Assembly: GCA_038897035.1 (NCBI GenBank)
Contig: JAWAXF010000006.1
Coordinates: forward strand, 3,773 to 67,772
Length of the DNA: 64,000 nucleotides
Direction of reading: 5' to 3'
Source of the DNA: Candidatus Bathyarchaeia archaeon
GTDB lineage: Archaea > Thermoproteota > Bathyarchaeia > Bathyarchaeales > DTEX01
Shown here piece by piece: positions 2,375 to 52,930 of the stretch (positions are counted from its first letter, which is position 1; every line of letters starts with the position of its first letter). Below the pieces are notes generated by a model that was not told the origin of the DNA, made no database searches, and saw only the letters and a program-made list of their open reading frames with translations. Both the position numbers and the translations under genes were made by a program.

Positions 2375-2631
2375 GGAGAATTGGCAATGAAATGAGCCGA
2401 ATCCCGCCGGAACCTACTCTGGGGCCCGCATAGACGGACCTGACTGAGGGGGCGTTTAGGCGCCTTTCTATGAGGGAGGGGTTACCCAGGTGCGGGACAC
2501 GGCGGGCGTGGGGCGCCAAAATTCCACGTGAGAGAGAGCTCAGCTGAGGGGAGCGCGGCCCGCTCCGACTGTGAGACTGGGTGTTAGTCGCGTGGAACAC
2601 AGAGGCGCCCCACGATAATCCCATTTACTCC
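2375..2631 (+). ncRNA. G+C-rich structured RNA, class unresolved (size range of SRP or RNase P RNA, but I could not find the signature motifs of either)
   Basis: A sharp GC-rich island sits in an AT-rich spacer. Nested helices: 2403-2409/2500-2506, 2425-2430/2491-2496, 2439-2442/2487-2490, 2508-2517/2604-2613, 2522-2530/2589-2597, 2550-2555/2561-2566. A possible closing helix pairs 2375-2384 with 2621-2631. Four G-U pairs would be C-A mismatches on the other strand, which favours + sense. The only ORF here (2361..2624 -) translates to junk. Confidence 0.5.
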
Positions 2632-2932: not shown

Positions 2933-4411
2933 TTATATTATCTGTGTTAGTTTTGGCATAAAATATCCTTTTGATACATCCATTTCAAGCGCGTAGAGGG
3001 GCGTCCTGGGCTTCACGCCATAAATGATGACGCAACCATATTTGCGTGTAATCTTTATGTGGGATTCCGCCAGCGCGCCCAGAACCTCAGAGATCCTTGG
3101 GTGGCCTGGCTTAAGCAGTATCATATATAGGTCTCCTCGCTCCCTCACTCTTGCAGCATGATTCCTGATCGCCGAGAGGGCTTCCCTCAGCCCATATGTG
3201 TCTATTAGCATATCCGCACCGACAAAATGTAATATCGGCCGACCTGTCCTCTCACGGAGCTCGCGCTCAATCTCTACATATTTTGCATAATCCTCCAAGA
3301 AACTATCGCCCCTACACGCTACAATATATGGGGCAGACCTAATCCCGGCATAATCCTTAATGAATATTCTCAGCAAATTGTTTATTTCATTCTCTTCTAA
3401 GCAGACTTCCTTAACGCGCCTCAGGATTAGGCTGTAGTCTATTCCGGCCGATGGGAATATCAATGCGCCCCTACCCTGCGCCAAGAAGTTCCATATTGTT
3501 GGATATATAAGTACATGGTACTGTAATATTGAAATGTACGGGTCGACGATCTCAATTAGGGCTGTAGATCCTTTCTGGTAGCCTCCGCCGAGCATCCTGT
3601 CCAAGTCTTGGGAGCCCGTGGAAAAGCACTCATCTGCATCTGGTCTCGGTCCGAACCTGCTTGGTTTCGCAGCTATTTTGGCCTCGAAGGGTGGTAGAGC
3701 CTTAAAGCCGTCCTTAAGCGTGAAGACGCTATGATTTTCTTGGATCGGAGTGCCCCTCATTTTTAGTATTTCTACTTCCCTAAAGATTCTACCGCCTTCA
3801 AGCTCACTTTTACTTAGGCGGATTATTCCGTCTGCAACGAATTCCTCTATGCCAAGCCCCATTTTATTCTCGCCGTATGGAACCTCCACCACCAGGATTA
3901 TTGTGCAGCCCAGGAGCCTTGTAACCCTGCTTATGATCGTATGTAGAGTTACCCTGGCTTCATGGGTATCTTTAAATGCTTGGGCCATGGCTGAGAAGGA
4001 ATCTATTACTAGGCGCTTAGCTCCAAACTCGCTTATCTCCCTAAGTATCGTCTCTATTATTGCTGGTGTAGCCTCCTCCCTCGCCGTCACTAGATCTAGG
4101 AAGCGGAACTCGCCTCTCTTCTCAAGTCCCTCGAAGTCTAGGCCTAGGCTAAGCATATTCTTGAGAAAGGTTTCTCGGCTCTCAGCAAAGCTGACATAGA
4201 CCCCCTTCTCGCCGTAATTTACCGCGCCATAGTAGAGGAAGCATGCGGAGAATATTGTCTTGCCGGTTCCGGGGTTCCCGGCTAAAATCACTATACCGCC
4301 CTTTGGGAGACCCCCACTAATAATTTCGTCTAGGCCATTTATTCCCGTGGGAACTTTGTCAACGCTTACTGATCTCACAATCTTATCGCCCTCCTCGGGC
4401 TTTGGCAACAC
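2933..4411 (-). CDS. KaiC-like (RecA-superfamily) ATPase with two domains; the second domain lacks a P-loop
   Basis: The N-terminal domain has VPTGINGLDEIISGGLPKGG and Walker A GNPGTGKT. The second KaiC-like half (DLDRMLGGGYQKGSTALIEI...) has no GxxGxGKT. It is the last gene of the pilus-like operon. Confidence 0.8.
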   Translation of the reverse strand: MLPKPEEGDKIVRSVSVDKVPTGINGLDEIISGGLPKGGIVILAGNPGTGKTIFSACFLYYGAVNYGEKGVYVSFAESRETFLKNMLSLGLDFEGLEKRGEFRFLDLVTAREEATPAIIETILREISEFGAKRLVIDSFSAMAQAFKDTHEARVTLHTIISRVTRLLGCTIILVVEVPYGENKMGLGIEEFVADGIIRLSKSELEGGRIFREVEILKMRGTPIQENHSVFTLKDGFKALPPFEAKIAAKPSRFGPRPDADECFSTGSQDLDRMLGGGYQKGSTALIEIVDPYISILQYHVLIYPTIWNFLAQGRGALIFPSAGIDYSLILRRVKEVCLEENEINNLLRIFIKDYAGIRSAPYIVACRGDSFLEDYAKYVEIERELRERTGRPILHFVGADMLIDTYGLREALSAIRNHAARVRERGDLYMILLKPGHPRISEVLGALAESHIKITRKYGCVIIYGVKPRTPLYALEMDVSKGYFMPKLTQII

Positions 4412-4799
4412 TTTCTATGAAGGAGCGTATCTCATTTATGGCGCTCTGGCCTCCATTATACATAAGCTCTAAAAAATACTCTGGGTCCATGCTCAGCCCG
4501 TATTCCCTATTAATATTTAAGATTAATATGCTAATTAAAATTTTTGTGCCCTCGCCAAAAAGCCTAACCATCTCATCATAAACTGCTCTTGGATTCTCCC
4601 ATAGGACCTCGATTGGGTCGCGCCTCAGGGTCTCCTTAATGAAGAATATTACTGCTTCTCCAGCGGACTCTCCAAGCGAGGAGCAGACGATCCTCCTGAA
4701 TGCCCAACGGAAAACTTCGAGAAGAATATCAGTAGAATCATTTATGCTGTGTGTGCTATTAGGTACGAATATTGACACCATAATCTCCGCCACTAGCAA
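4383..4799 (-). CDS. Small soluble protein of unknown function, overlapping the KaiC-like gene start
   Basis: 138-aa ORF with no TM segment that overlaps the KaiC-like gene start by 29 nt. A homologous N-terminal fragment (…FRGICRKTICYSFGESAGEA) sits upstream of the decayed KaiC copy at ~39.4 kb, which supports a conserved gene pair. Confidence 0.5.
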   Translation of the reverse strand: MLVAEIMVSIFVPNSTHSINDSTDILLEVFRWAFRRIVCSSLGESAGEAVIFFIKETLRRDPIEVLWENPRAVYDEMVRLFGEGTKILISILILNINREYGLSMDPEYFLELMYNGGQSAINEIRSFIESVAKARGGR

Positions 4800-4871
4800 T
4801 CAATCCCTCTGGGAAGAAGTTTATTTAAGCCTACGTAACATTTATCTATATACACGATACTTATCTAACAT

Positions 4872-6146
4872 CTACCAGAGTTCAATTCTTGATAATCCTT
4901 CACCGCATATTATGTGGAGAGTACCTCCACTGTCATTATCAAGACGTGTGAGAATTAAGACAATTATGCTGTTTTGGGGTATCGTACTAACGCCTGGACT
5001 AAAAGATAGATTATACTCTAATGGTGTCGAGGACTTACTAATTGTTATATTCTTGAAGCCGATCACGCAAAGAGCGCCTTCGTGAACGTAGGCTAAAGTG
5101 ACATTAACATCTATAGAACCTTGTTTCCCTTGCTTGGAGTAAAATGCATGTAATGTAATATTTATTGAATTACCAAGAGTCAGATTATTCGGCGTTGTTT
5201 CAACTGTGCGTCCAGTACGATTATCAAAGGGATTATTTAGTGGCGGTCTAACTTGCCCCTCCTCAGGTTCCAGCAGGAGCATAAAATCTTTACTCTTATT
5301 TTTAAACCTTTCAGGCGATATATAAAGAACCCTCCAGTCTTGCTCTTCGCTTCCTCCACCTTCTCCACCTCCTCCACCACCTTGGCTTCCAGGAATTCTT
5401 GCCCCAACTATTACACCATCACCTGTAGTAACCATTAGCATCGAGCCTCCCATATTTAAGTTGTCGGGCAGACTAAACTGTACAACATATTCTCCCCGAC
5501 CCATATACTCAGAAGAACACGCATTATAACTAGTTCCATTAATATATAGCTCTGCCTTCGCAATATCAGATATTGGCATATAATGTTCTCTAGCACCGCT
5601 CAAGCAAACTTTAAATCTAATAGTTCCTGTATCGGTCCAATTCCGTATATTAAGACGTACTGCTTTTCGCATTGCTACGGCTAAATTTCTGAGACCATAC
5701 GTCTCAACATTCATGCAAAATGTCGTGTAAACTGCGCTTATACCTGAATTATCTCCCCAGTTTATATACCAGCCTATGTTTTCTCCCGAGCTACCCTCAG
5801 TCTTCAATGAAATGTTCATGCCGAAACCATTATAGAGGGCTGGGAGGGCTCTATACCAATTTTCTGTTAATGCCCTTCCACATATTTTAGCCGATTCTTC
5901 GTTCCAAGTCTTACTATAATTCTGCGTTGCCATTGCTAATGCTCTTGTCAGGCATCTTTCGAAGTCGCTTGTTATTGCCAGGACTAGTTCGTCTATTGGC
6001 TCGTAGGCTACCCCCTGCCTACTCGTGCTTATCTGGCTTATTGTGTGAATTAGAGAGAACATGAATGCCGCCATTATAACTGCGGCCAGAATAACGAACT
6101 GCCCTCTCCTATCTCTCCTAAACCTATTCACAGGCAACCAACTCAA
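4872..6146 (-). CDS. Pilin-like or pilus-associated secreted protein (class III signal-like N-terminus, two domains joined by a Gly-rich linker)
   Basis: The N-terminus RRDRRGQ/FVILAAVIMAAFMF is a charged stretch, then G-Q, then a hydrophobic helix. There is an internal GSQGGGGGGEGGGSEE linker. The gene is co-oriented in the pilus-like operon. Confidence 0.5.
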   Translation of the reverse strand: MSWLPVNRFRRDRRGQFVILAAVIMAAFMFSLIHTISQISTSRQGVAYEPIDELVLAITSDFERCLTRALAMATQNYSKTWNEESAKICGRALTENWYRALPALYNGFGMNISLKTEGSSGENIGWYINWGDNSGISAVYTTFCMNVETYGLRNLAVAMRKAVRLNIRNWTDTGTIRFKVCLSGAREHYMPISDIAKAELYINGTSYNACSSEYMGRGEYVVQFSLPDNLNMGGSMLMVTTGDGVIVGARIPGSQGGGGGGEGGGSEEQDWRVLYISPERFKNKSKDFMLLLEPEEGQVRPPLNNPFDNRTGRTVETTPNNLTLGNSINITLHAFYSKQGKQGSIDVNVTLAYVHEGALCVIGFKNITISKSSTPLEYNLSFSPGVSTIPQNSIIVLILTRLDNDSGGTLHIICGEGLSRIELW

Positions 6147-6232
6147 ATATTATTCATGTTATATTATGCATTATTATATTGTGCATAATATAACCTTTAT
6201 GGTCTAATGATCTAAGCTAGCCTAAAAAGAAT

Positions 6233-6682
6233 TCATGTCAGCCCAGCTCGCGTGAGACTGAGGCATAAATAATATATTTTCCCATCCCTTGAAGTATATG
6301 TTATGCTGGCCGAGGCAACCTCGCTGGAAGTCTCAAAAACCTCTTCAGGGGCATTTGAGATAGTCCACTGGCCAGAATTATCCCTTATTATTAGATTGAA
6401 GTATATGTTTGGGGGTAGTAGGCTCTGGAGGGCACTAAATAATGTAGTACTGGAACTAGATTCAATCGTCTCATCGATTACGCCCGACTCTGCCAGGCGG
6501 TGTAGGACATTATATGCCAGCCTATTTAAGTCAACAGCCTCCTGCCTAAAGAATTTCTCTGACGAGAAGAGCATGAAGAACGCTGCCGTGAAGGCTATGA
6601 AAATCAGTATTGATGCTACAACAGCCTCTATTATCCTCGCCTGCCCAAGCCTCAGAGCACGCATCACCATGACATCCTCCAC
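6233..6682 (-). CDS. Small pilin-like protein
   Basis: The N-terminus MRALRLGQ/ARIIEAVVASILIFIAF is a prepilin-like signal with Glu at +5 if cleaved after GQ. 149 aa. Overlaps the upstream gene by 19 nt. Confidence 0.5.
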   Translation of the reverse strand: MEDVMVMRALRLGQARIIEAVVASILIFIAFTAAFFMLFSSEKFFRQEAVDLNRLAYNVLHRLAESGVIDETIESSSSTTLFSALQSLLPPNIYFNLIIRDNSGQWTISNAPEEVFETSSEVASASITYTSRDGKIYYLCLSLTRAGLT

Positions 6683-7737
6683 ACCCTTAACCTAACAGTG
6701 TACGTGGATAATCCTATCCTAACACTCCGCTCAAGCATATAAGATGATGGCGGATAAACTTCCCCAGCTATAAAACCATAGCTCCTTGGAATATCCTTCC
6801 ATGATACTACAAGGTTGTTATTATTTGTTAGCGCCACTACAGCAATAGCATATGGCTCCACACCACTCATATTATACACACTATAGTTATTAATTCCGCC
6901 ACCAGAAGCTAATTCCAATCCATATTTCGCTATTCCTACGCTGAATGAACTATTCGGGAACTTTGCGAGGAATATCTGGTAGGCTCCATTATCAGCATCT
7001 ATTTGATAGGATGAGTTCATAATGAGAAAGTTACCAATAAAATGAGCATTAATAACGCTGCCAACATTTTCTACCACTACCCTTTGCACTCCATAATGGT
7101 CCACAGCGGCAACTAAGAGCGCTAGACTGGAACTGGAGAAAGTTAAATTTAAAGCACAGTTCCCACCTCCATCAGTTTTCCCAGAAGACTGGCTCAGCCT
7201 AAGACCCCCATTTCCATCAAAGGAGATTGCGCCAACAGTTACCTTCGCGTTTGCGGCCGGCATACTTTGCTCAGAGACGACACTAACATTAACGTTATTT
7301 AAGCCTGAACGTAACGTTACATTTAATGCTGGAATGAATTCTATTTTTATGCCATAATCAAATCCAGTTTCACTAGAACCTAAATTCAACAACTCTAAAA
7401 CTCTCTCTGGCGGTATATAGAGCTGAGCTGGAAGATTTTGACTTAATCTCTGAACTTTATTTGGATCTAAGACGAATGCTTCTCGAGTGAAGAATGTGCT
7501 AACTGCCAGGCCGAAAGATGATAAATTCTCAGACCTTATGGTAATATTTTCTCCCCAGTCCTCCGGCTCCCCCGGACTTAAGAGCATCTGCGTCATTATC
7601 TTCTGCGCAACCATCTTCAGCTGCTCAACCTCAGCCATGCTCCTATAAAGTGGCGGCGATATACCAGTCAAGAAAATGGCCGCTAACAATATCGCGATCA
7701 TCACTATTGCCGCAAAAATATACTCATACGTTTCCAT
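6664..7737 (-). CDS. Pilus-associated membrane-anchored protein (N-terminal hydrophobic helix, Ser/Asn-rich beta-type ectodomain)
   Basis: The N-terminus METYEYIFAAIVMIAILLAAIFL is followed by 330 aa with no further TM segments. Lies in the same operon. Confidence 0.4.
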   Translation of the reverse strand: METYEYIFAAIVMIAILLAAIFLTGISPPLYRSMAEVEQLKMVAQKIMTQMLLSPGEPEDWGENITIRSENLSSFGLAVSTFFTREAFVLDPNKVQRLSQNLPAQLYIPPERVLELLNLGSSETGFDYGIKIEFIPALNVTLRSGLNNVNVSVVSEQSMPAANAKVTVGAISFDGNGGLRLSQSSGKTDGGGNCALNLTFSSSSLALLVAAVDHYGVQRVVVENVGSVINAHFIGNFLIMNSSYQIDADNGAYQIFLAKFPNSSFSVGIAKYGLELASGGGINNYSVYNMSGVEPYAIAVVALTNNNNLVVSWKDIPRSYGFIAGEVYPPSSYMLERSVRIGLSTYTVRLRVWRMSW

Positions 7738-7742
7738 TTATA

Positions 7743-8315
7743 TTAGCCCCTTTGGATGCCTAAGCCAGCATATATAGTTTCAACCTCTGCAGATTCGTTA
7801 TTCTTCATTATAGTTTCGATAACCTTCCGGCACCAGACGACAGTATTCGGGTTACCGCCGTAAACCCACGCTCTAGGCTCGATATCAGGGCCCGCTATGG
7901 ATGAAGAGCCACCAGTAAATATCACCATTATTCTTCTCTGCGTTGAACCCAACGCTATGGGGGACTCAGCATATAAGTCATTTCTCCCAATAATACTCAC
8001 GCGGACATGGTATCCACCATCCATCTCTAATATGCTGAGGTTGTAGGGTTTCCCGTTAATTGCTGCTGGAAGGTTTAGGTGCTTTGAGACTGCTTCGGTT
8101 TCTGAAAGCATGCCGTAGACGAAGTCCGTTAGGCTGATTATGTTAGTTATGCTCATTGAAGTATACTCTGCTATCTGGCTCAGCTGAGTTTTAATAACGT
8201 TCCCCTCAACATAGCCAACAACAATCTGGTAAGCTAGGGCAAGGGACACGGCCAAACCTATTAGGGCAACCGTCCCAATAATATGTTGTAGTGACACGTG
8301 CACCATCCCTGCCAC
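7743..8315 (-). CDS. Pilus-associated membrane-anchored protein
   Basis: Single N-terminal hydrophobic helix (IIGTVALIGLAVSLALAYQIVVGY). 190 aa, with 1-5 nt spacing to its neighbours. Confidence 0.4.
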   Translation of the reverse strand: MAGMVHVSLQHIIGTVALIGLAVSLALAYQIVVGYVEGNVIKTQLSQIAEYTSMSITNIISLTDFVYGMLSETEAVSKHLNLPAAINGKPYNLSILEMDGGYHVRVSIIGRNDLYAESPIALGSTQRRIMVIFTGGSSSIAGPDIEPRAWVYGGNPNTVVWCRKVIETIMKNNESAEVETIYAGLGIQRG

Positions 8316-8316
8316 C

Positions 8317-9099
8317 TCACATTATAGAAACATTTATAAGGACCTCCACAATCCTAACAATAGATACCCCCGATATCCCCGGATAGTCTGCATGATGTTC
8401 ATCGACATTAACGTGAACCATCAAGTCGCTGGATCCGCTAAGCTGTATTGACGCCATGTTTATATCTCTATTTTGAACCCTGACGGAAACTGTTCCCGAG
8501 CCACCAAATACCCCTGGCTCAAGGCGAATTAAGTAGATGTCTAATGTTCCAAGGTTCTCGTTTTTTATGATCCGCACCCTATTATAGTCCAGCACTATCC
8601 ACGCTTCGTTCCCAATCTCTATTCGAACATACCCCAGGGGCTTAGATAGGTCCGTAATTATTAGTCCGCCTGGATTTGTTAGGTTCATTTGCGCCACTGA
8701 GACCATGCTCCCCCCACGATACTTAATGATATAGGTGGAATTGACATAAGTGTATAGGGTGCGGCTTGGGCTAGAAATTGTTACATTAATTAGCCCGCCC
8801 TTATATACGCCTATTCCCCCGCTCCTTTGGTTGAATTGGACTGAGCTTGCGGCTCCAGGTCTCAGTGATACGTCCATTATTGTTTTGTCCAGTAGTAACA
8901 TGGCTGTCTTAGCCTGCTCGAACTCAGAGTTCTGCATCTGGATCTCCAGCAGGTTTGTTGCGAAGAAGGAGGCTATAACGAGAATTACGAGTAGCGTTGC
9001 GGTTATAATTACCATAGATATAACTGGTGAGACACCCCGCTTCACTAGGGTTCTACCATCATAAATTACTCTTAGCCTCCGCAATGCTCTGTTTAACAC
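8317..9099 (-). CDS. Archaeal pilin-like protein (class III signal peptide, DUF361-type N-terminus)
   Basis: KRG/VSPVISMVIITATLLVILVIA matches the archaeal prepilin motif [KR]G-[VI]SPVI. Confidence 0.6.
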   Translation of the reverse strand: MLNRALRRLRVIYDGRTLVKRGVSPVISMVIITATLLVILVIASFFATNLLEIQMQNSEFEQAKTAMLLLDKTIMDVSLRPGAASSVQFNQRSGGIGVYKGGLINVTISSPSRTLYTYVNSTYIIKYRGGSMVSVAQMNLTNPGGLIITDLSKPLGYVRIEIGNEAWIVLDYNRVRIIKNENLGTLDIYLIRLEPGVFGGSGTVSVRVQNRDINMASIQLSGSSDLMVHVNVDEHHADYPGISGVSIVRIVEVLINVSIM

Positions 9100-9130
9100 C
9101 TCCTATCTCTTTTCCCCCATTATGCCTATA

Positions 9131-10882
9131 CTAGAACTTTAGGAACATGCCGAAGAAACGCATGAATATTATCGAGAACATGGCAATGAGCGTGAGTATT
9201 ACAGCATGCCTAAAGCCTGCCGAAACATTTCCAGTGCTGACCTTCCCGGTCACTATACCCATTATATATGACTGGAAGACCAGTGCTGGAACAATTGTCA
9301 CCAGTATTTGCGTGAATGGGATCATTGCGCGTGCTATCGACATAACTGCGGAGCGCATGAAGTTTATCATCACAATTGTCGAGAAGACCATTAATGCCGC
9401 GCCTATGTATGGCATTATTATTAGTGGGCGGAGGGCAGCCATCTTCTCCTTCTCGAGGGAAGCCTGCATCTCACCGAACCTAGCCATAGTCTCAAGGGTT
9501 TCTGAGCTGCCCCCGCCAATTTCTATCGCATCGACAAGAAGATATAGATTGATTAAGGCGAACCAGGAGCTTATTCTCCTCTTCAGGGTCTCATATATAA
9601 CTCTTATCGGTTGGCCCCACCGCAACTGTCGGGCAACTATTCTCAAATGTCTACTGAAAGCCCCATAGGGTCTCGATGATAACTGTGTTATGCACGCCTC
9701 TGGTGAAGCGCCAGTTTTCCTAGCCTCCGTCATATCCCTAAGGAAGTTTGTTACTTCATTAACCACCTTCCTACCCCTGCGGCGCTCATAGTAGCTATGG
9801 GCTACCGCCGCTGGAACTGTTCCGGCTATTAAAGCTATCCCCATACCCAGTGAGGGTTCCAATCCCTGCTCTATATCCAGTAGCACTCTGAGGGAAGTCA
9901 AGAGGTCTTTGAATTGTTTTATTAAGGGTATCAGTGCGAGTTCTGGTGTGAGGTATGGGAGGACCATCGTGAAGATTAGGATGCTCATTATTGGTAATGA
10001 TGCCATGAAAATCCTGTACGGCATGGTCTCATATGTTGGCTCATTAAAGCTAGATAGATCCGATAGATAGATGAAGATTATTGAGAGGACCGGCACAAGG
10101 ATGTATGAGTACAATAGGAAGTTCTCGGCCGTGAAGCCCCCCTGCCAGTATCCACGGAAAGCTATTGAGGTTAAGTATACTATGCTTATGCCAAGGGTCC
10201 CCAGAATTATTATTGCGACGTATGATTCCAGGAGCATTGCGGCGCGCTCCCCAAATATCCTTATCTTCGCCGCCAGGTCCCTAAACATCATCTCCGTGCG
10301 CGTCAGAAGGTAATGCACAACGTCGCCGCCAGCCCTCAGCGTGTAAACGTAGCCCAAAAGGAACTCCTTATACTCCTTTGAGGGTGCCCTCTCAGATGAC
10401 TTCTCTATTGCCGCTATTGGATCCATGCCCTTTAAATGCACATCTATATCAATCTGCTTGGCTGTCTTAGATGTATGTGGAAGGAGCTCGCAGCCCTTCA
10501 GTCTCTTTAGGCTTGAGTATGGCGATAGGCCGCCCGTAGCCATGACGCTCACGTAAGCGGCCATGAATGGCGCCTCCATGTCTAGCTTTGATGCTCTATC
10601 CTGGGCCTTTACGCTTGGCAGGGCGTATCCGATTAGGAGGATTATTATAGGGACAATAGCTATTGGATAGAGGCCGGTAAGCCATATGAGGGCCGCTGAG
10701 GCTGCTACGGATATTACTAGGAAGAGGCCAATTAATGAGAGGTACGCTTCTGGGTATATTCTTATTCCAGCAGCCTCCAGTGAGTCCCTTAACCTGGATG
10801 AATTTCCACCATAAAATATTTTTATTAGGATGTTTGATAACCACCAGAAGCTCTGGTACGTTAGGCCTGTGAAAGAAACCAT
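9131..10882 (-). CDS. Type IV pilus/archaellum assembly platform membrane protein (FlaJ/TadC/PilC-like)
   Basis: 583-aa polytopic membrane protein with two similar halves. Sits directly downstream (3-nt gap) of the secretion ATPase, the canonical I-J arrangement. Confidence 0.8.
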   Translation of the reverse strand: MVSFTGLTYQSFWWLSNILIKIFYGGNSSRLRDSLEAAGIRIYPEAYLSLIGLFLVISVAASAALIWLTGLYPIAIVPIIILLIGYALPSVKAQDRASKLDMEAPFMAAYVSVMATGGLSPYSSLKRLKGCELLPHTSKTAKQIDIDVHLKGMDPIAAIEKSSERAPSKEYKEFLLGYVYTLRAGGDVVHYLLTRTEMMFRDLAAKIRIFGERAAMLLESYVAIIILGTLGISIVYLTSIAFRGYWQGGFTAENFLLYSYILVPVLSIIFIYLSDLSSFNEPTYETMPYRIFMASLPIMSILIFTMVLPYLTPELALIPLIKQFKDLLTSLRVLLDIEQGLEPSLGMGIALIAGTVPAAVAHSYYERRRGRKVVNEVTNFLRDMTEARKTGASPEACITQLSSRPYGAFSRHLRIVARQLRWGQPIRVIYETLKRRISSWFALINLYLLVDAIEIGGGSSETLETMARFGEMQASLEKEKMAALRPLIIMPYIGAALMVFSTIVMINFMRSAVMSIARAMIPFTQILVTIVPALVFQSYIMGIVTGKVSTGNVSAGFRHAVILTLIAMFSIIFMRFFGMFLKF

Positions 10883-10885
10883 GCT

Positions 10886-12511
10886 TTAGCTAACCCCCCT
10901 TCTTATAGCTACTGCTGGGAATGGGTTTAATAGGCGGTACCTTGTTATTTCGGTTCTAACATCTGTGTTGCTTCTGACGCCGCGACTCAGTAGGTCGCGG
11001 AAGAGTAGAGCTCTTCTGGTGAGCTCCTCTAAGACTTTTTCTACGCTTATGCCATATTTTATAGCTATTCTATTGAGCATCTCGCTCTTCCTAAAGCTGT
11101 GTGTATACGTGTCGGTTATTGGGTTCCAGGAGGCTATTGTCTCATATCTATCATAGTCGATTATCTCGTGGACCTCGCGTATTCTCCTGCCAAAGGTTAG
11201 CCCCATTCTAGGTCTCGGCAGCTGGGCTCTTTCCTGAACTATGGCGACGTTTACGAGCGGTATATAGCTCTCCGCCACGTTCATAGGCGGACTCGTCAGC
11301 CTCTTCACGGCGTGTTCTAGGCTCTCTGCGTGGATTGTTGTTAGACCTCCGTGGCCTGTAGCCATGGCCTGGAATAGTACGAATGCCTCTTCTCCTCTTA
11401 TCTCGCCTACTATGATGTAGTCTGGTCTGTATCTTAAGGAGACCTTGACTAGATCGAATAGGCTTATCTCGCCTGTCTTTGATGCACCGAGTCCGTAGCT
11501 GGTTCTGCCGACCAGCTGAACCCAGTTCTCATGGGGAAACATTAGCTCTGGTATCTCTTCGACCGTCACTATTTTCATTGATGGCTTAACTAGGCTTGCG
11601 ATTACGTTGAGGGTTGTTGTCTTGCCAGCGCCTGTTCCGCCTATCACCATCATCGTCATCCTGTTCTCGACTAATAGCCAGAAGTATGCCGCAAGCATCT
11701 CGTCAATTGTTCCCAGATTTATTAGGTCTATTATTGAGAATGGCTCCTCCCTAAACCTTCTTATACAGAATGTGCTCCCCCTCGGCGAGACCTCGTATCT
11801 GAATGTTGCAGCGAGCCTGTCCTTTGTTGGGAGCATTGCATCTAATATTGGGAAAGCTGTTGAGATGTGCTTCTGGGCTATGTGCGTGAGCTTTATTAGA
11901 ATGTTATCTAGCGTCTTTTCATCGATTATTTTCAGGTTTGTTGGCATGCTCTCATACTTTCTATGCCAAACGTATATGGGTATGTTGAGGCCGTTGACGG
12001 ATATGTCCTCGATCATCCTGTCGCTCATTATGACGTGTAGTGGGCCGAAGCCTATTAGGTTTCTATGCAAGTAGTATAGGATTTTACGCCAAGATTCCTC
12101 GCCAAGGCGCTTGATGTGTCTAGTTAAGCCATATTTTTTGGCGAGTCTCTCCGCCTCGCTCTCAACATATTTGTATGGGTCGACCGCCTCTTCGGGCGGG
12201 GGCTCGATCTCGACACTAACAATGTCGATAAGCTTATTGAAGATTATGTGTTCCTCGGGGGATAACTCAACCTCCTCAATAAAGTAGGCCCTTTCGCCGC
12301 CGAGGTCTGGGAGGGATGCTATTGTAACCTTAGAAAAGGGGTTATGGATCGGATAGGATTCTATTATCTTGGCATTTTCCGGGATCTTGGAAAAGACAGC
12401 TACTGGCGGTGGAGGGACAATCTTCTTCGCAAACAACTTCTTGAAGAGGGAGGAGAAAGCCCCTCGCCCACTACCCTCAACAACACCCACAAAATCCACC
12501 TCAACATCCAT
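10886..12511 (-). CDS. Type II/IV secretion-family assembly ATPase (FlaI/PilB/VirB11-like)
   Basis: Walker A GGTGAGKTT, then the VGEIRGEEA and TGHGGLTTIHA boxes typical of T2SSE/FlaI ATPases. 541 aa. Confidence 0.88.
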   Translation of the reverse strand: MDVEVDFVGVVEGSGRGAFSSLFKKLFAKKIVPPPPVAVFSKIPENAKIIESYPIHNPFSKVTIASLPDLGGERAYFIEEVELSPEEHIIFNKLIDIVSVEIEPPPEEAVDPYKYVESEAERLAKKYGLTRHIKRLGEESWRKILYYLHRNLIGFGPLHVIMSDRMIEDISVNGLNIPIYVWHRKYESMPTNLKIIDEKTLDNILIKLTHIAQKHISTAFPILDAMLPTKDRLAATFRYEVSPRGSTFCIRRFREEPFSIIDLINLGTIDEMLAAYFWLLVENRMTMMVIGGTGAGKTTTLNVIASLVKPSMKIVTVEEIPELMFPHENWVQLVGRTSYGLGASKTGEISLFDLVKVSLRYRPDYIIVGEIRGEEAFVLFQAMATGHGGLTTIHAESLEHAVKRLTSPPMNVAESYIPLVNVAIVQERAQLPRPRMGLTFGRRIREVHEIIDYDRYETIASWNPITDTYTHSFRKSEMLNRIAIKYGISVEKVLEELTRRALLFRDLLSRGVRSNTDVRTEITRYRLLNPFPAVAIRRGVS

Positions 12512-12583
12512 TCAAACCATAATCAAAAAATTAAATAAATATATTATGGAGAGCTACTAAAAGCTGTTTGATCTCAATAGTTC

Positions 12584-13072
12584 CTAAGGCAAGACTATAG
12601 TCTTAGGATACTGGTTGCCAGCAGCCGTTGCAATAGTTATTTCTAAGGCGATTCCAGGAGCTGGACTGTAAGTACCAATTTTTATAGATGAAGGAAGATT
12701 AATTAGGAACTTCATTGATTTGCCAGGATCTAATGAAACTCCAACAGTCGAATCAAAATCAGTATTATTGTATGTTATGGTCACGCTCCCATCACTTATC
12801 TCCTCAAAGGGGATTCCGTTGAAGAAGAAGTTTGATATTGTTGCTACCGCTGACCCTGTGTTCTTCACAATAATTGTTATATTCCAGCCACCACCTCCGG
12901 AAACTGCATATGCTGCTGTGTATTCTAGTTTTTCGTATCTTGTGAATGTTGTTGCCAGCCCCATCATCCAGTATGCAACCGCTATTGACATGACAATTGC
13001 CACTGCAACGATGATTATTGTCGCTATAACGGGGCTTATAGCCCTCCTATCGCTCCTAATATTCCTAACCAA
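12584..13072 (-). CDS. Archaeal type IV pilin (candidate major subunit), TTG start
   Basis: The N-terminus RSDRRA/ISPVIATIIIVAVAIVMSIAVAYW is a class III signal. 162 aa. It is the first gene of the operon, with a TTTAAAA box ~20 nt upstream. Confidence 0.7.
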   Translation of the reverse strand: MVRNIRSDRRAISPVIATIIIVAVAIVMSIAVAYWMMGLATTFTRYEKLEYTAAYAVSGGGGWNITIIVKNTGSAVATISNFFFNGIPFEEISDGSVTITYNNTDFDSTVGVSLDPGKSMKFLINLPSSIKIGTYSPAPGIALEITIATAAGNQYPKTIVLP

Positions 13073-13234
13073 ACTATTAATTCACCCTTTTAAACTAACT
13101 CCAAAAAAAGGTATAATGTTCATTTATTTAAGCTTTGCTATTATGCTAAAATCATATTGACAATCCAGTCTAATAATATAGACCACATACAATCATTACG
13201 CAGACATATTTAATGCCATGATTAGATGAGGAAA

Positions 13235-14323
13235 CTATGAGCTGGGTTGCTTCTCCCGCGCGCTCTCCTCAATCATCCTCATTACACAGTCTTTAACTTT
13301 AGCCGCAATCTCCTGAAGATCCTTACCCTCAACAACCTTCATATTATATGCCTCCGCCAAGTCTCTGCTGCCCTCATCAATGCCGCTCGGCGTCACCATA
13401 ATCTTATGCAGGATGCCAACGTCGGTAGCTTTAGCCCAGAGGGCCATGACGTCCGCCGCCGAGGCAGCCTTATCGGAGAGATAAAGTGAGCCAACAATGA
13501 TTGGTGGGGCATCATCACTATGCCACACGGCGAAGGAGAAATCGTGCTTAATACCAGACCTACCATAGAGGGTTACAGGAGCCTTAACAGTGAGACCTAC
13601 GTCCCTAATAGGCTTAAGAATAACCTCAATATCAAAGGTGAGGCGCTCAATCAAAACCCTCTTCTCAGGATTAACCTTAAATGCCATAACACTATAAACC
13701 ACAAGATCGTTCTCGCCGAAAACATGCCCACTGCTACACAGGTACTCAACCTTTGGATCCGAGAAGGCACTTTTACAGCTCAAGCACCTATAGAGGGAAC
13801 TGAAGACTCTATAGTCTACACCAAGCTGCCCAAGAGGCTTCCTGCAATTCAGGCAGAGTAAGCCCTCTCCACTCCTAAACTTATCCTCAAAATCTATGTG
13901 CCCACAAGCTAGGTGCTCAATCATCCTACCCCTAACGAGCCTAGAGGAGCCGCATGAGGGGCATTGATACCTAATCATAAGCCTATGAGACTGGCAGTGG
14001 GGGCAAATAGCAATATTATCCACAACCTCAGAGCTTAGTACGCCAGCCTCGCATAGAAGGTGAAGAGATTCCCTAATATCCTTCGCGGAGCCAACCGTAT
14101 TATTAAAAGCAGGGTATCTAACAGCATCTCTGAACTCAACTTTAGGTTCTATAACATCAATATCCATACCTTTTAAAGCCCTAAGTACCCTCTGAACCTT
14201 CTCACTTCCCAGCAAACTCAACATATCAGACAAGGGAAGGACACCAACAAAAAACGTTAGAACACAAAATACTATATAAGCATTACTAATTGAAGTAAAA
14301 ACATCCTCGCCCAGCAGCAACAT
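13235..14323 (-). CDS. Membrane-anchored protein with multiple zinc ribbons and a C-terminal alpha/beta (restriction-endonuclease-fold-like) domain
   Basis: N-terminal TM helix, then CPHCQSH..CPSCGS, CLNCRK and CLSCKS (three CxxC pairs). The C-terminal region GRSGIKHDFSFAVWH...IIVGSLYLSDK...KIMVTPSGI follows. Lies upstream of and co-oriented with the pilin gene. Confidence 0.45.
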   Translation of the reverse strand: MLLLGEDVFTSISNAYIVFCVLTFFVGVLPLSDMLSLLGSEKVQRVLRALKGMDIDVIEPKVEFRDAVRYPAFNNTVGSAKDIRESLHLLCEAGVLSSEVVDNIAICPHCQSHRLMIRYQCPSCGSSRLVRGRMIEHLACGHIDFEDKFRSGEGLLCLNCRKPLGQLGVDYRVFSSLYRCLSCKSAFSDPKVEYLCSSGHVFGENDLVVYSVMAFKVNPEKRVLIERLTFDIEVILKPIRDVGLTVKAPVTLYGRSGIKHDFSFAVWHSDDAPPIIVGSLYLSDKAASAADVMALWAKATDVGILHKIMVTPSGIDEGSRDLAEAYNMKVVEGKDLQEIAAKVKDCVMRMIEESAREKQPSS

Positions 14324-14423
14324 GGGTCCCCACCCATAGGCACAACCTTATTCCTGCAACCAAAAGTTACACTAAAGGTTATAGGCAAGGATTTAGTGAC
14401 CATATAAGGAGATAGCTGAACTG

Positions 14424-15254
14424 GTGGCTTATATGAGAGCCGTTGCCATCATCATGCTTTTATTGGCCATTAGCCTCGCCCAGCAAGGACCTTACAACGT
14501 GGAGAAGTGCCTTCTAACCGTCTATAGGGACGGTGTAGTCCACATATACCTCAAGACAACAGTTGACGAGCTTGAGCCGTACACGGTGCTCCCGTTACTA
14601 TCAAGCCCCGACAAAATAGACAATGTACTTGTCCTAGACGAAAATAATGAGACGCTAGTCTATGATTACGGCGAGAATAATACCATTATCATATATACTC
14701 TCGGTGCAAAGCAGGTTAAAATAGAATACGATACTAGCAGCTTAACATCAATGGAGTACGGCCTATGGAAACTTAAAATCACAGCACCCTTCAGCCTAAT
14801 CATTAGGCTCCCAGAAGACGCAACAATAATTTACATCAACGCACCCCCAACAGAGATAAGACCCATAGATAAACGGATCGAGTTAACCCTTAATCCAGGA
14901 GACTGGGAAATAAGCTATGAGATACCGATAACCCTGCCAACACCAAGCCAGCCACCAGCGATACCAGATTACTTGAAATATTACATTATCACCGGGGTAT
15001 GTGTTGCGTGCATATCCATCATATCAGTAATATACATTAAGAAGAGAAGGATTCTAGGGAGCCTCAGCAACGAGGAGATGGAGGTCTTAAAGTTCATCAG
15101 GGAGAGAGGTGGGAGAGCCCTAGAGGCTGAGCTTAGGGAAAGGTTCCCGCATATACCTAGGACGAGCATGTGGCGACTAATAAGGCGCTTAGAGAAGAGG
15201 AGTATAGTCCAGGTTAGGAAGGTCGGGCTACAAAATGTCGTAGAACTAAAATAA
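14424..15254 (+). CDS. Membrane-tethered winged-helix transcription regulator (signal/ectodomain - TM - cytoplasmic wHTH)
   Basis: N-terminal signal-like helix, ~170-aa ectodomain, and TM segment YYIITGVCVACISIISVIYI. The C-terminal LKFIRERGGRALEAELRERFPHIPRTSMWRLIRRLEKRSIV is MarR/TrmB-like. Divergent from the pilus locus. Confidence 0.55.
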   Translation: MAYMRAVAIIMLLLAISLAQQGPYNVEKCLLTVYRDGVVHIYLKTTVDELEPYTVLPLLSSPDKIDNVLVLDENNETLVYDYGENNTIIIYTLGAKQVKIEYDTSSLTSMEYGLWKLKITAPFSLIIRLPEDATIIYINAPPTEIRPIDKRIELTLNPGDWEISYEIPITLPTPSQPPAIPDYLKYYIITGVCVACISIISVIYIKKRRILGSLSNEEMEVLKFIRERGGRALEAELRERFPHIPRTSMWRLIRRLEKRSIVQVRKVGLQNVVELK

Positions 15255-15284
15255 GCTGGCCTACCAACGGTAGGAGAAAGTGGA

Positions 15285-18200
15285 CTACCAGTACTTGAAC
15301 AGGAGGCTATCCATGTACTCGTTCAAAGACCTAACAATAATGTCATTGTTACTTCTTATATACTTCAGAACCTTAACTATGGCCGAGGTCAGCTCAAGGG
15401 TTGTAACCACCGGAATATTATACTCAACGGCCAGCCTTCGGATCACATACTCATCTTTAGCAACCTCCGACGGAACACCATTTGGATTTCCAGCAGGAAT
15501 ATTAATGACAAGATCTATCTTGCGCTGAACAATATGGTCAACTATGTTCGGCTTCTTAGAGGGTTCACTAACCTTATAGAGGACAGTTACATTCTTTAAC
15601 CCGGCTTCATGGAGGGCATCCGCGGTATGCTCAGTTGCATATATCTTGAAGCCGATCTCACTTAGGCTTCTGGCCAAAGGAACCATCTTGTGTTTCATCT
15701 CCCGCCCACCGACGGTTATTAAGACCGAACCATCTTCCTCTGGGAACACGAACTCAACGGACTCAAGGGCCTTCATCAGCGCATCCGCAAAGTTCTCGCC
15801 TATACACGCAGCCTCGCCAGTGCTAACCATCTCGACACCGAGTACTGGGTCAGCGCCCGTCAAGCGCATGAAGCTAAACTGCGGAACCTTAACTGCCACG
15901 TACGGTATAGGCGGCAGCTCAAGTATGCCAATCTCTTTAAGGCTCTTGCCGAGAAAGACCTCCGTAGCGATGTCTATGAGGTGCACGCCCCTACTCTTAC
16001 TAACATATGGGAGGGATCTGGATGCCCTAAGATTGCACTCGATCACCATAACCTCGTTGCCCTTAACTAGGAACTGTATGTTAAATGGCCCCCTTATACA
16101 CAACGCCCTAGCTATCTCGTAGGCGTAGTCCTCAATCTTCTTGATCACGCCGCTACTCAGAGACAATGGAGGTATACACATAACCGCGTCTCCACTATGG
16201 ACCCCAGCCTGCTCAACATGCTCTATAACCGCGCCTATCAAAACATCTTCCCCATCAGATACGCCGTCGACCTCAACTTCCTTGGCACCCTCAATGAACT
16301 TCGATATTACAACCGGGTGCTCCTTAGAGACCCTCGCCGCCAGCTCAAGGTAATCTCTAAGCTCCTCCCTGCTATATGCAACCCTCATAGCTTCCCCAGA
16401 GAGGACGTAGCTCGGTCTAACCAGGACTGGATAGCCTATCTCCTCAGCAAACTTCTCCGCCCCCTCGATGGTTGTAAGCCTACTCCACTTGGGCTGTGAG
16501 ATGCCGAGCTTGTCTAACAATGCGCTAAATTTGGATCTATCCTCAGCGGCATCTATACTCTCACTTGAGGTTCCAAGGATCCTAACCCCTGCCCTAGAGA
16601 GATTTAAAGCCAAGTTATTGGGTATCTGCCCACCCACGCTCACTATGACGCCGAGCGGATTCTCCTTCTCATATATGTCCAGAACCCTCTCGAGGGTTAT
16701 CTCCTCAAAATATAGCTTATCTGATATATCGTAGTCAGTTGAGACCGTTTCTGGGTTATAATTTATTACTATCGCCTCATCTATGCCATACTTCTTGAGG
16801 GCCCAGACGGTGTTAACGCAGCTCCAGTCGAATTCAACGCTCGAACCTATCCTAAAGACGCCAGCGCCCAAAACTATAACCTTCTTCTTCCCAGTATCAA
16901 AGGGTATATCGTCTTCATCACCATTGTAGGTCACATAAAGGTAATTTGTCTTAGCGGGCCACTCGGCTGCAAGAGTGTCTATCTGCTTAACAACCGGTAT
17001 TATTCCATGGAGTTTTCTGAAGCGCCTAACCTCATCTTCACTTATGCCAAGGTACTTAGCGAGCTGCGCATCTGAAAAGCCTAGGCGCTTAGCCTCCCTA
17101 ATAACCTCAACGGCAGAACCATCGCCAAGCTTAAGCCTTCTAAGTTTCTTCTCCATCTCAATGATATTCCTTATTTTGTAAAGGAACCATGGGTCTATGC
17201 CGCTTAGACGGTAAATCTCTCTTACTGGCACGCCCATTTTTATAGCCTTAACTATCTTGAAAAGGCGCTCATCGGTTGGATTTCTCAAACAATCTTTTAT
17301 ATCTTCTATTGGCTCAGGCTCATCCTCATCGTCATTGCCGACTAAGCCTATCTTGCCTATATCAAGCATCCTAACAGCCTTCTGAAGAGCCTCCTCAAAC
17401 GTCCTCCCAATCGCCATAATTTCACCAACAGACTTCATCTGCGTGCCTATATGGCGATCAGCATTCCTAAACTTCTTTAAGTCCCAACGCGGAATCTTCA
17501 CCACAACATAATCTAGGGCTGGCTCAAAGCATGCTGTAGTTATCCCAGTAACTTTGTTAATAAGCTCTGGAAGTGTATAGCCTATTGCCAGCTTAGCCGC
17601 TATATAAGCTAACGGGTAGCCAGTGGCCTTACTGGCCAAGGCTGAGCTCCTCGACATCCTCGGGTTAACTTCTATAGCCCTATACTCCTCAGATCTCGGG
17701 TGGAGGGCCCATTGGATATTACACTCTCCGACAACACTGAGAGCCCGCACAGCCCTTATAGAGGCTGAGCGCAGGAGGTGGTACTCACGGTTAGTCAGCG
17801 TTTGAGAGGGTGCAATGACTATTGAGTCTCCAGTGTGAACACCCATCGGGTCAAAGTTCTCCATGTTACAAACAGTTATACAGTTATCCTTATAATCCCT
17901 CATAACCTCGTATTCAACTTCCTTCCAATGCCCAATCCACTCCTCAATCAAAACCTGCCTTATGAGACTATGCACCAGGGCCCTACTTACAATCTCCCTC
18001 AGCTCACGCTTGTTATACGCCACGCCGGAGCCCTTGCCACCTAAAGTATAGGCGACCCTAATCATCACAGGGTAACCTATCTCCTCGGCTACCTCCAGCG
18101 CCCCCTCAACGGATGTAGCGGACCCACTTTTGGGCACAGGCACGCCCGCATCCATCATCGTCCGTCTAAACAGTTCCCTATTCGATGCTCTCTCGATAGT

Positions 18201-18563
18201 CTCTACTGATGTGCCAAGAACCTTAACGCCATACTTGTCCAGAACACCCATCTTGGACAGCTGAACGCCACAGTTGAGAGCCGTTTGGCCACCGAATCCT
18301 AGCAATATGCCATCCGGTCTCTCCCTCTCAATAACCCTCGCAACGTACCTTGGCGTAACCGGAAGCAAGTAAACCCTGCCAGCTAGCCTAGGATCTGTCT
18401 GTATCGTTGCTATATTCGGGTTGACTAAGATCGTCTTTATGCCCTCCTCCCTAAGCGCCTTAAGACACTGGCTTCCCGAGTAGTCAAACTCCGCAGCCTC
18501 GCCTATCTTTATTGCGCCGCTCCCAAGCACAAGAACCTTTCTAACCCACTCAAACCTAGACAA
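15285..18563 (-). CDS. carB: Carbamoyl-phosphate synthase large subunit
   Basis: 1092 aa with duplicated ATP-grasp halves (VLVLGSGAIKIGEAAEFDYSGSQ and VIVLGAGVFRIGSSVEFDW). carA lies immediately upstream. Confidence 0.95.
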   Translation of the reverse strand: MSRFEWVRKVLVLGSGAIKIGEAAEFDYSGSQCLKALREEGIKTILVNPNIATIQTDPRLAGRVYLLPVTPRYVARVIERERPDGILLGFGGQTALNCGVQLSKMGVLDKYGVKVLGTSVETIERASNRELFRRTMMDAGVPVPKSGSATSVEGALEVAEEIGYPVMIRVAYTLGGKGSGVAYNKRELREIVSRALVHSLIRQVLIEEWIGHWKEVEYEVMRDYKDNCITVCNMENFDPMGVHTGDSIVIAPSQTLTNREYHLLRSASIRAVRALSVVGECNIQWALHPRSEEYRAIEVNPRMSRSSALASKATGYPLAYIAAKLAIGYTLPELINKVTGITTACFEPALDYVVVKIPRWDLKKFRNADRHIGTQMKSVGEIMAIGRTFEEALQKAVRMLDIGKIGLVGNDDEDEPEPIEDIKDCLRNPTDERLFKIVKAIKMGVPVREIYRLSGIDPWFLYKIRNIIEMEKKLRRLKLGDGSAVEVIREAKRLGFSDAQLAKYLGISEDEVRRFRKLHGIIPVVKQIDTLAAEWPAKTNYLYVTYNGDEDDIPFDTGKKKVIVLGAGVFRIGSSVEFDWSCVNTVWALKKYGIDEAIVINYNPETVSTDYDISDKLYFEEITLERVLDIYEKENPLGVIVSVGGQIPNNLALNLSRAGVRILGTSSESIDAAEDRSKFSALLDKLGISQPKWSRLTTIEGAEKFAEEIGYPVLVRPSYVLSGEAMRVAYSREELRDYLELAARVSKEHPVVISKFIEGAKEVEVDGVSDGEDVLIGAVIEHVEQAGVHSGDAVMCIPPLSLSSGVIKKIEDYAYEIARALCIRGPFNIQFLVKGNEVMVIECNLRASRSLPYVSKSRGVHLIDIATEVFLGKSLKEIGILELPPIPYVAVKVPQFSFMRLTGADPVLGVEMVSTGEAACIGENFADALMKALESVEFVFPEEDGSVLITVGGREMKHKMVPLARSLSEIGFKIYATEHTADALHEAGLKNVTVLYKVSEPSKKPNIVDHIVQRKIDLVINIPAGNPNGVPSEVAKDEYVIRRLAVEYNIPVVTTLELTSAIVKVLKYIRSNNDIIVRSLNEYMDSLLFKYW

Positions 18564-18566
18564 GTC

Positions 18567-19712: not shown

Positions 19713-19753
19713 TATCTTGGAAAAACCCTCCTTAAAACTTGAGGAAGCAATAT

Positions 19754-39506: not shown

Positions 39507-39853
39507 TAACTTAAGTATTGCTCAATAAATATATTAAAACTTTGCTTATAATCGATATATATTAAGACACCGTATATTGACTTAAAATTCACCTTTTAAA
39601 AGTCTCTTATTCAAAATGATTGGAATAGGACCCTTTATCATAAATTTATATTTTAGGACTTTTCCGCATTTTATTCGCGTGAAAAGATTTTAAATATTTT
39701 GCCTAGAAAGCTATCATATTTATATTTATCATCCTTTAGGAATTATATGCGGAGCCGATGTTTGGATGGAAGGGGGTTTGAGCAGGCGCCAAGTACATTA
39801 GCCCTTCCCCGTAAAGAGGAAGCGCTGAAACCGAGCTCTAATTTTGATGGCTG

Positions 39854-52882: not shown

Positions 52883-52930
52883 TTTATTAGTCTCTCCCAA
52901 GATATTGATTATTGGGGACTGAAAAATACC

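Follow-up and report, generated by a model that had tools for sequence, protein, structure and literature searches.

A conserved type IV pilus locus of Bathyarchaeia and the optional KaiC-like cassette at its end, a candidate accessory regulator

Is a KaiC-like ATPase encoded at the end of an archaeal pilus operon a part of the pilus machine, a regulator that accompanies it, or a neighbour that happens to be there? This question is raised by contig JAWAXF010000006.1 of a Candidatus Bathyarchaeia archaeon (GenBank assembly GCA_038897035.1), of which a stretch of 64,000 nucleotides (nt) was analysed, called the window throughout. Its minus strand carries a run of type IV pilus (T4P) genes, then the gene of a small protein of 138 amino acids (aa), p138, and finally that of a two-domain KaiC-like ATPase. 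In a preliminary description of this DNA the ATPase was regarded as hard-wired to the pilus, and p138 as a dedicated partner. We come to another answer. The locus is very probably a TACK-type archaeal T4P of a hot-spring Bathyarchaeia organism, and we lean towards an adhesive pilus accompanied by a regulatory cassette of KaiC/Death-like type, optional and separately promoted.

The pilus itself is readily recognised. Region 2933-14323 of the minus strand, checked for open reading frames (ORFs), consists of the ten already listed in the preliminary description and of an upstream TackOD1 gene. The ten lie where they had been placed, the family assignments agree, and every N-terminal string that had been quoted was found in the translations; the list was incomplete, however, as the same-strand TackOD1 gene at 13235-14323 is part of the conserved locus. 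The candidate major pilin (12584-13072, 162 aa) has a class III signal, RRA/ISPVIATIIIV, and matches the archaellin/type IV pilin N-terminal domain of NCBIfam (TIGR02537) with 29.1 bits for a cut-off of 20. The assembly ATPase of the FlaI/GspE type (10886-12511, 541 aa) matches T2SSE of Pfam (PF00437) with 125 bits (cut-off 24.9, E 3e-36). Its gene adjoins that of a polytopic platform protein of the TadC/FlaJ type (9131-10882, 583 aa), which matches T2SSF (PF00482) along two stretches with 69.9 bits (cut-off 25.2). The three components by which membership of the T4P is judged – a GspE/FlaI-type ATPase, a TadC platform and a pilin with a class III signal – are all present.

Downstream of this core come five accessory proteins, anchored in the membrane by their N-termini, of which four, like p138, match no Pfam or NCBIfam family above threshold. 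Six N-termini of the operon had been taken as prepilin-like or as a single hydrophobic helix; in alignments of 33-86 homologues per family, four keep a class-III-type motif, while the remaining two, those of p190 and p357, are a hydrophobic helix only. The pilin keeps KA/VSPVIATIII across 33 homologues. The pilin-like p260 (8317-9099, signal KRG/VSPVIS) keeps RG/VSPVIS, in the extended form RG/VSPVISTVIIT in 60 homologues, and has a weak match to DUF7289. In the small pilin-like p149 (6233-6682) the motif is KGQxRILEAV, with residues G, Q, R and E conserved at about 90% (67 homologues). The pilin-like p424 (4872-6146, RRGQ/FVIL in the window) keeps RGQFVI and weakly matches DUF7261. The length of its homologues varies between about 260 and about 1600 aa; their ends are conserved, while repeated beta-domain motifs are inserted in the middle. 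Such a size-variable middle would fit a variable tip adhesin, and p424 is our candidate for this role. By contrast with these four, p190 (7743-8315) lacks a canonical prepilin cleavage motif, its consensus N-terminus being MDVPIQHIIGTVALIGL (MDVPIQHIIG), a hydrophobic helix, and it is known by its conserved position.

The N-terminus of p357 (6664-7737), a system-specific protein, is a curious one. There is no leader: the ORF opens with MxxYEY, followed at once by a hydrophobic helix, and an in-frame stop codon lies just upstream. The glutamate at position 5, counted from Met1, is conserved at about 80% in some 85 homologues. As judged from its residues, this start looks like the N-terminus of a mature pilin, one that would have no need of a prepilin peptidase.

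The protein p357 also served as the anchor of a synteny search; its matches were 48 protein clusters, all of Bathyarchaeia and Nezhaarchaeota, and 79 metagenome loci. Profile searches found the order pilin, ATPase, TadC, p260, p190, p357, p149, p424 fixed in essentially all contigs of sufficient length, so that about 80 conserved-order loci from the two lineages are now at hand; the position of p260 is fixed in about 60 of them, and those of p190 and p149 are conserved across the fetched loci. Our literature search returned no paper on a Bathyarchaeia locus type of this kind. At 8 of 18 informative loci, and also in L160, L161 and L162 (L numbers designate the loci compared), the TackOD1 gene immediately precedes that of the pilin in the same orientation. 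The TackOD1 product, a multi-CXXC zinc-ribbon protein of arCOG06883 type, matches PF18551 with 117.6 bits (cut-off 32), and its true start is probably some 30 codons downstream of the first ATG. Members of the TackOD1 family have been reported in thaumarchaeal T4P loci (PMC5847659, PMC4858521), and Makarova, Koonin and Albers (2016; PMC4858521) note arCOG06883 zinc-ribbon proteins in T4P loci.

Could the system be a divergent archaellum, with the KaiC-like protein as an enlarged ArlH? We give this next to no credence. It is true that the best NCBIfam match of the ATPase is the FlaI (ArlI) model, with 348 bits, and that the pilin shows a weak match to Arch_flagellin (E 0.05). Yet 550 is required by the FlaI model, and also by that of ArlJ, with which the platform reaches 30; the KaiC-like protein has 76.8 for a cut-off of 215 with that of ArlH. 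Among solved relatives of the ATPase, Archaeoglobus fulgidus GspE (2oap) comes first with 322 bits, ahead of FlaI with 243. In Pfam and NCBIfam none of the five accessory proteins matches ArlF, ArlG, ArlX or ArlCDE, the gene order differs, and the genuine archaellum cluster of a related genome (L164) looks quite different. The preliminary description, which had found gene order and content unlike those of an archaellum, was right in this respect. As for ArlH (FlaH), it too is an ATPase of KaiC/RecA-like type whose gene lies among those of a type IV filament. It consists, however, of one domain (about 230 aa), binds ArlI and belongs to the obligatory core of the archaellum, whereas the present protein has two domains, about 480 aa, and is optional.

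Two other named filaments fare no better. With the NCBIfam models of the Ups pilus we obtained 31 for UpsA (the pilin, cut-off 130), 90 for UpsF (cut-off 400) and no UpsX-like match; with those of the bindosome (Bas), 240 for BasE (cut-off 1000) and 74 for BasF (cut-off 1300). Archaellum, Ups and Bas identities were all rejected on these model cut-offs. The Ups, Aap and Bas pili of Sulfolobales, which belong to the clade-4 archaeal T4P, share with the locus the core of ATPase, TadC and class III pilin, but their accessory gene set is unlike the one described here. Since the ATPase is nearer to GspE and the equivalog scores are far below their cut-offs, we place the locus with the TACK-type T4P, and not with archaella, Ups or Bas.

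What, then, is the ATPase at the end of the operon (2933-4411)? It belongs to the KaiC/RecA-like family, matching PF06745 over residues 20-234 with 208.5 bits (cut-off 26.6). In its first domain the Walker A stretch G45-T52, with K51 and T52, the catalytic glutamate E77 and the Walker B aspartate D137 are invariant, and this domain looks active as far as residues can tell. The second domain aligns to the first up to the position of the P-loop, where EIVDPYISI replaces AGNPGTGKT; the loss of the P-loop from the second RecA-like domain had been noticed before and is real. The AlphaFold model, with a predicted local distance difference test (pLDDT) score of 87, can be aligned along its entire length with KaiC of cyanobacteria (about 500 columns, E 1e-32), and both halves can therefore be taken as KaiC-like folds. 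The family is large, with at least 975 members (E <= 1e-10 among 8000 candidates scored), most of them from Bathyarchaeia and others from Nezhaarchaeota, Nitrososphaerales and Jordarchaeales.

Two well-known proteins help to situate it. Cyanobacterial KaiC has the same double RecA-like fold, and the N-domain matches it with E 1e-81, but the second domain of the present protein is without Walker A, so that a kinase site of the CII type is absent, and no KaiA or KaiB gene lies nearby. The circadian KaiC equivalog stays at 179 for a cut-off of 408. The other is GvpD, the haloarchaeal gas-vesicle regulator, in which a P-loop KaiC-like domain is followed by a region matching the present C-terminal domain: GvpD_bR2 covers residues 256-322 with 51.9 bits (cut-off 27.9), and the GvpD_P-loop model gives 19.1 (cut-off 24). 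GvpD regulates through protein partners, and its genomic context is unlike that of the present locus.

The gene of p138 (4383-4799), which precedes that of the ATPase, encodes a small cytoplasmic protein. Its AlphaFold model is an all-alpha bundle of seven helices (pLDDT 87). A profile of 35 family members finds PH0832 (2p9x) with E 5e-9, and the model finds it in Foldseek with probability 0.99. The NitrOD5 domain (PF11537) is matched weakly by 13 of the 35 members, the best with E 2e-4 and all of them below the gathering score; the protein of the window reaches 15.6 bits for a cut-off of 27. PH0832 and NitrOD5 are the closest relatives of p138. They stand for the so-called Death-domain-like partners of KaiC in archaea (NitrOD2/4/5, arCOG03758), and we know of no function for PH0832. 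Homologues were not easily gathered: a word-indexed search gave 11, and it took iterated hidden Markov models (HMMs) on the fetched loci and an exhaustive profile search, which returned 93 clusters of small stand-alone p138-like proteins, to see the family. One such stand-alone gene lies in the Nezhaarchaeales locus L164 at 10001-10402, about 3 kilobases (kb) from the archaellum cluster at 13393-20204; this cluster is canonical, with archaellins, an ArlH-like KaiC of 234 aa, ArlI and ArlJ, and a TrmB/HTH-like gene separates it from the p138-like gene.

Where the two proteins begin matters for how their genes are joined. From the coordinates, the gaps from the pilin gene to the KaiC-like gene are +72, +3, +31, +1, +5, -19, +86, +72 and -29 nt; of the range formerly given, -29 to +90, the lower end holds and the upper one comes down to +86. 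The overlap of 29 nt is itself doubtful, because homologues of the KaiC-like protein are 476-482 aa long and a downstream GTG is preceded by GGAGG; it is probably an artefact of choosing the first possible start codon. The likely start is this GTG at 4378, 4 nt past the stop codon of p138 and about 11 nt past the Shine-Dalgarno-like GGAGG. The choice follows from the homologue lengths, from GGAGG, and from the orthologous pairs of L160 and L161, which abut or overlap by 4 nt. The p138 gene probably starts with the ATG at 4781. With this arrangement p138 is predicted to be translationally coupled to the ATPase.

The pair does not belong to pili alone. Of 80 genome loci fetched through the KaiC-like protein, with p138-like genes called by iterated HMMs, about 50 have such a gene immediately next to that of KaiC, before or after it and in the same orientation. 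Pilus genes are mostly far away, and the KaiC-anchored loci have no further conserved neighbour of the two. That the small protein is a partner of the KaiC-like one, as had been proposed, agrees well with this, and we are confident that the two genes make up a cassette. Partner it may be, dedicated to the pilus it is not: cassettes occur in several copies per genome and in unrelated contexts (one metagenome-assembled genome, for example, has both L001 and L006). The window has a second copy, decayed, at 38544-39860 (minus strand), where the start of p138 has been fused, by an internal deletion, with the last part of the KaiC N-domain. It retains a p138-like N-terminal fragment, VIETFRGICRKTICYSFGESAGEA, and a stop codon follows the N-domain remnant, while the intact ORF 38544-39125 encodes the P-loop-less C-terminal domain only.

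Two further observations concern relatives of these genes. A third KaiC-family locus of the window, at 52250-53722 (plus strand), encodes a single-domain KaiC-like ATPase of 263 aa (52931-53722), preceded by a protein of 210 aa of unknown family. Homologues of TackOD1 stand beside KaiC/p138 cassettes in L014 (7806-8579), L024 (4922-5992) and L068 (2470-3546), where no pilus genes are found, and these neighbourhoods link the zinc-ribbon protein with the cassette even where the operon is missing.

How often, then, does the cassette meet the pilus? Starting from the KaiC-like protein, a direct join to T4P genes was found in L001 and L047 only, and in L027 the two are 6 kb apart. Three further contigs, L160, L161 and L162, were picked because matches to KaiC and to p357 fell on contigs of equal length. 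The eleven genes of the window recur in the same arrangement in L160, from Nezhaarchaeota, and in L161; in L162 the cassette keeps its site but is inverted and convergent. (The KaiC of L162, at 13667-15514, is called as two pieces of 439 and 52 aa, which points to a frameshift or a faulty assembly.) In the p357 tree the window, L001, L160, L161 and L162 fall into one subclade, made up of both Bathyarchaeia and Nezhaarchaeota, with p357 identities down to about 52%. L047 is distant from them: its cassette follows p424 in the order KaiC then p138, opposite to that of the window, and its KaiC protein lies in a distant clade of the KaiC tree. From the single subclade and the distant L047 it follows that the linkage is old and mostly retained in one subclade, that it arose independently at least once more, and that it is absent elsewhere. 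Synteny of the pair with pilus genes, which the preliminary description had named as a check, thus holds for one subclade and L047 and fails for the other loci sampled.

Some candidates for linkage had to be put aside. In L096, L097, L103 and L107 p138-like genes lie 0.6-2.8 kb downstream of the operon; that of L097 is found beyond a DNA ligase gene of the opposite strand and has no adjacent KaiC, and a profile search found no KaiC near those of L096, L103 and L107. A KaiC HMM match after the operon of L143 belongs to an AAA-TPR protein of 1160 aa with a degenerate C-terminal KaiC-like domain, and is not a cassette. The pilus of L143 is of the same type but distantly related, and this AAA(STAND-like)-TPR gene (14497-17979), which comes after p424, may be a different regulator there.

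Is the cassette at least transcribed with the operon when it is adjacent? A scan with sigma-70 promoter and hairpin terminator models, which are unsuited to archaea, gave counts equal to those of shuffled sequence, and the intergenic gaps were read instead for TATA-like boxes and oligo-T runs. The gap of 72 nt before p138 (4800-4871, minus strand) holds the TATA-like GCTTAAATAAA (4830-4820); the same 9-mer is found upstream of the pilin, where GCTTAAATA stands at 13125-13133. Around GCTTAAATAAA the window shares a conserved block, ATATAGATrAATGTTACGTAGGCTTAAATAAA, with L001 and with the stretch that precedes the inverted cassette of L162; at the corresponding site before p138, TTAAAT-type boxes are seen in L160 and L161. 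The promoter-like element would thus be a belonging of the cassette and not of the operon, and the cassette probably has a promoter of its own. Oligo-T runs follow the pilin gene (T6) and that of p149. As for RNA, the metatranscriptome contigs of relatives (X14) have a depth of 86-420 over the 5′ part of the pilin and of 26 or less over the rest of the operon; the signal is strong over this pilin 5′ region alone, with traces on KaiC, p138 and the ATPase. Raw reads of the source study amount to 0 in two runs and 71 in a third, about 1x at most over the genes.

These data can be read in several ways. The hard-wiring of the preliminary description, carried further, would make the KaiC-like protein a component like ArlH: it would bind the assembly ATPase and gate extension, retraction or twitching, with p138 as a dedicated subunit. 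The common strand and the short gaps speak for this, as do the relatedness of the KaiC domain to ArlH (the 76.8 bits mentioned above) and the synteny kept in one subclade. Yet most pilus loci of the same type have all other genes in order and no cassette, the cassette of L162 is inverted and convergent, paralogous cassettes are spread across the genome, the ArlH model remains far below its cut-off, and a promoter-like block stands before p138. We find hard-wiring improbable. A bolder variant deserves mention, in which, in the pilus subclade that has the cassette, a hexamer of KaiC with its P-loop-less half (iKaiC) and the helical adaptor would form a post-translational switch docking on the single assembly ATPase or on TadC, perhaps through TackOD1, and toggling the machine between extension and disassembly. 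This is a long shot; we know of no retraction ATPase in archaea, and such a switch, if true, would give them a retraction-like control. At the other extreme, the adjacency might be incidental, a general-purpose signalling cassette happening in this lineage to have the pilus operon on one side and pheST on the other, with no specific role in the pilus. Much can be said for this: most cassettes live in unrelated contexts without another conserved neighbour, all 25 informative loci reached through p357 are without one, that of L162 is inverted, a promoter of its own is probable, one of the three KaiC-family loci of the window is decayed, and linkage within the positive subclade could be mere inheritance. 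But in Bathyarchaeia and Nezhaarchaeota the adjacency has survived an inversion and a protein divergence of 40-50%, it arose a second time in L047, where the KaiC is a distant one and the gene order swapped, the T4P-associated TackOD1 also stands beside cassettes elsewhere, and linkage of KaiC with T4P recurs in other archaea according to the literature (PMC4858521). On balance we consider mere coincidence rather unlikely, though clearly less so than hard-wiring.

We therefore come back to the adhesive pilus with an optional, separately promoted cassette, and a number of facts weigh against it too. None of the 25 informative p357-anchored loci has the cassette, and L086, L087 and L088 lack it although they lie inside the positive p357 subclade: the pilus clearly works without it. 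With three KaiC-family loci in 64 kb, genes of this family are so dense that some adjacency by chance is expected. In the intergenic gaps that were read, no oligo-T run separates p424 from the promoter block, so that transcription may read through from p424 into the cassette. The X14 contigs are short and the reads sparse, and RNA is too thin to join or to separate transcripts. The Death-domain assignment of p138 rests on sub-threshold matches; Foldseek, queried with the p138 model, returned PH0832 alone and no eukaryotic Death domain, for which reason we do not claim a Death fold. Finally, interaction of the KaiC-like protein with p138, phosphorylation, and co-regulation with the pilus are proposals, no more. 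On whether the cassette acts on the pilus we are evenly divided.

Were it to do so, the following scenario may be imagined. The pilin would form an adhesive filament, which p260, p149 and p424 would prime or cap as minor pilins, with p424 as the adhesin. The cassette, expressed from its own promoter, would regulate the pilus as an accessory in those lineages where the two are adjacent, and we infer that it is such an accessory regulator rather than a structural part of the machine. A KaiC hexamer would cycle through ATP-dependent states, and p138, as adaptor or output, would relay its state to the expression of the pilus genes or to assembly; the TackOD1 protein may belong to the relay. By analogy, this regulation would resemble that of KaiC with KaiB, of GvpD, or of CirA on the archaellum genes.

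There is precedent for such a pairing. Makarova, Koonin and Albers (2016; PMC4858521) found KaiC-family ATPases strongly associated with archaeal T4P loci, and described in loci of subclade 4B a KaiC-like ATPase (arCOG01174) together with an alpha-helical DEATH-like protein (arCOG03758), which they proposed to be a regulator of the T4P, the small protein replacing KaiB. The subclade 4B T4P of Thermoproteales, which we compared by description, are alike in having a TACK-type operon followed by a KaiC-family ATPase and a small all-alpha protein, but they encode TadC twice, as they do the PilA pilin, and an S-layer-like protein besides (PMC4858521), whereas in the present locus there is a single TadC and a single pilin, together with five conserved accessory proteins and TackOD1, and its hosts are Bathyarchaeia and Nezhaarchaeota. 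The best experimental analogue of a neighbouring KaiC-like regulator is CirA of Haloferax volcanii, a KaiC-like protein encoded beside filament genes and separately transcribed, which genetics has shown to lower arl transcription (PMC10983859); it is euryarchaeal, however, it acts on the archaellum, and a DEATH-like partner is not described. The opinion that the apparatus had not been characterised is therefore correct as regards experiments, but KaiC in T4P loci was already published (PMC4858521). The pairing of KaiC and p138 with a T4P extends a published computational observation and is not a new kind of system.

A neighbour of the cassette must be mentioned here. Between pheT (646-2364) and the KaiC-like gene lies a GC-rich structured element of about 225 nt (2390-2625, plus strand), which is about 90% identical in L001, L002, L161 and L162, where neighbouring proteins are 55-75% identical. 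It can be drawn as a consensus fold with 68 pairs. Its RNA depth is 473 in the X14 contigs and about 11x in the X19 reads, in which its neighbours have about 1x at most; the direction of the reads suggests the plus strand, and three reads have a back-joint from 2601 to 2485. The element matched nothing in Rfam, even at E <= 1, and no tRNA was found in it. It is a candidate for an unannotated non-coding RNA linked to pheST.

What does the locus tell us about the organisms that carry it? Bathyarchaeia are abundant, uncultured archaea of sediments and hot springs, and how they attach to surfaces or to partners is unknown. For them and for Nezhaarchaeota a pilus locus type is now defined, nine genes in a fixed order, with a size-variable candidate adhesin and a leaderless pilin-like protein. 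KaiC-like ATPases with small Death-domain-like partners have been proposed as signalling hubs of archaea, and a cassette with a recognisable candidate promoter that is present, absent or inverted in otherwise identical pilus loci gives this proposal a concrete test case.

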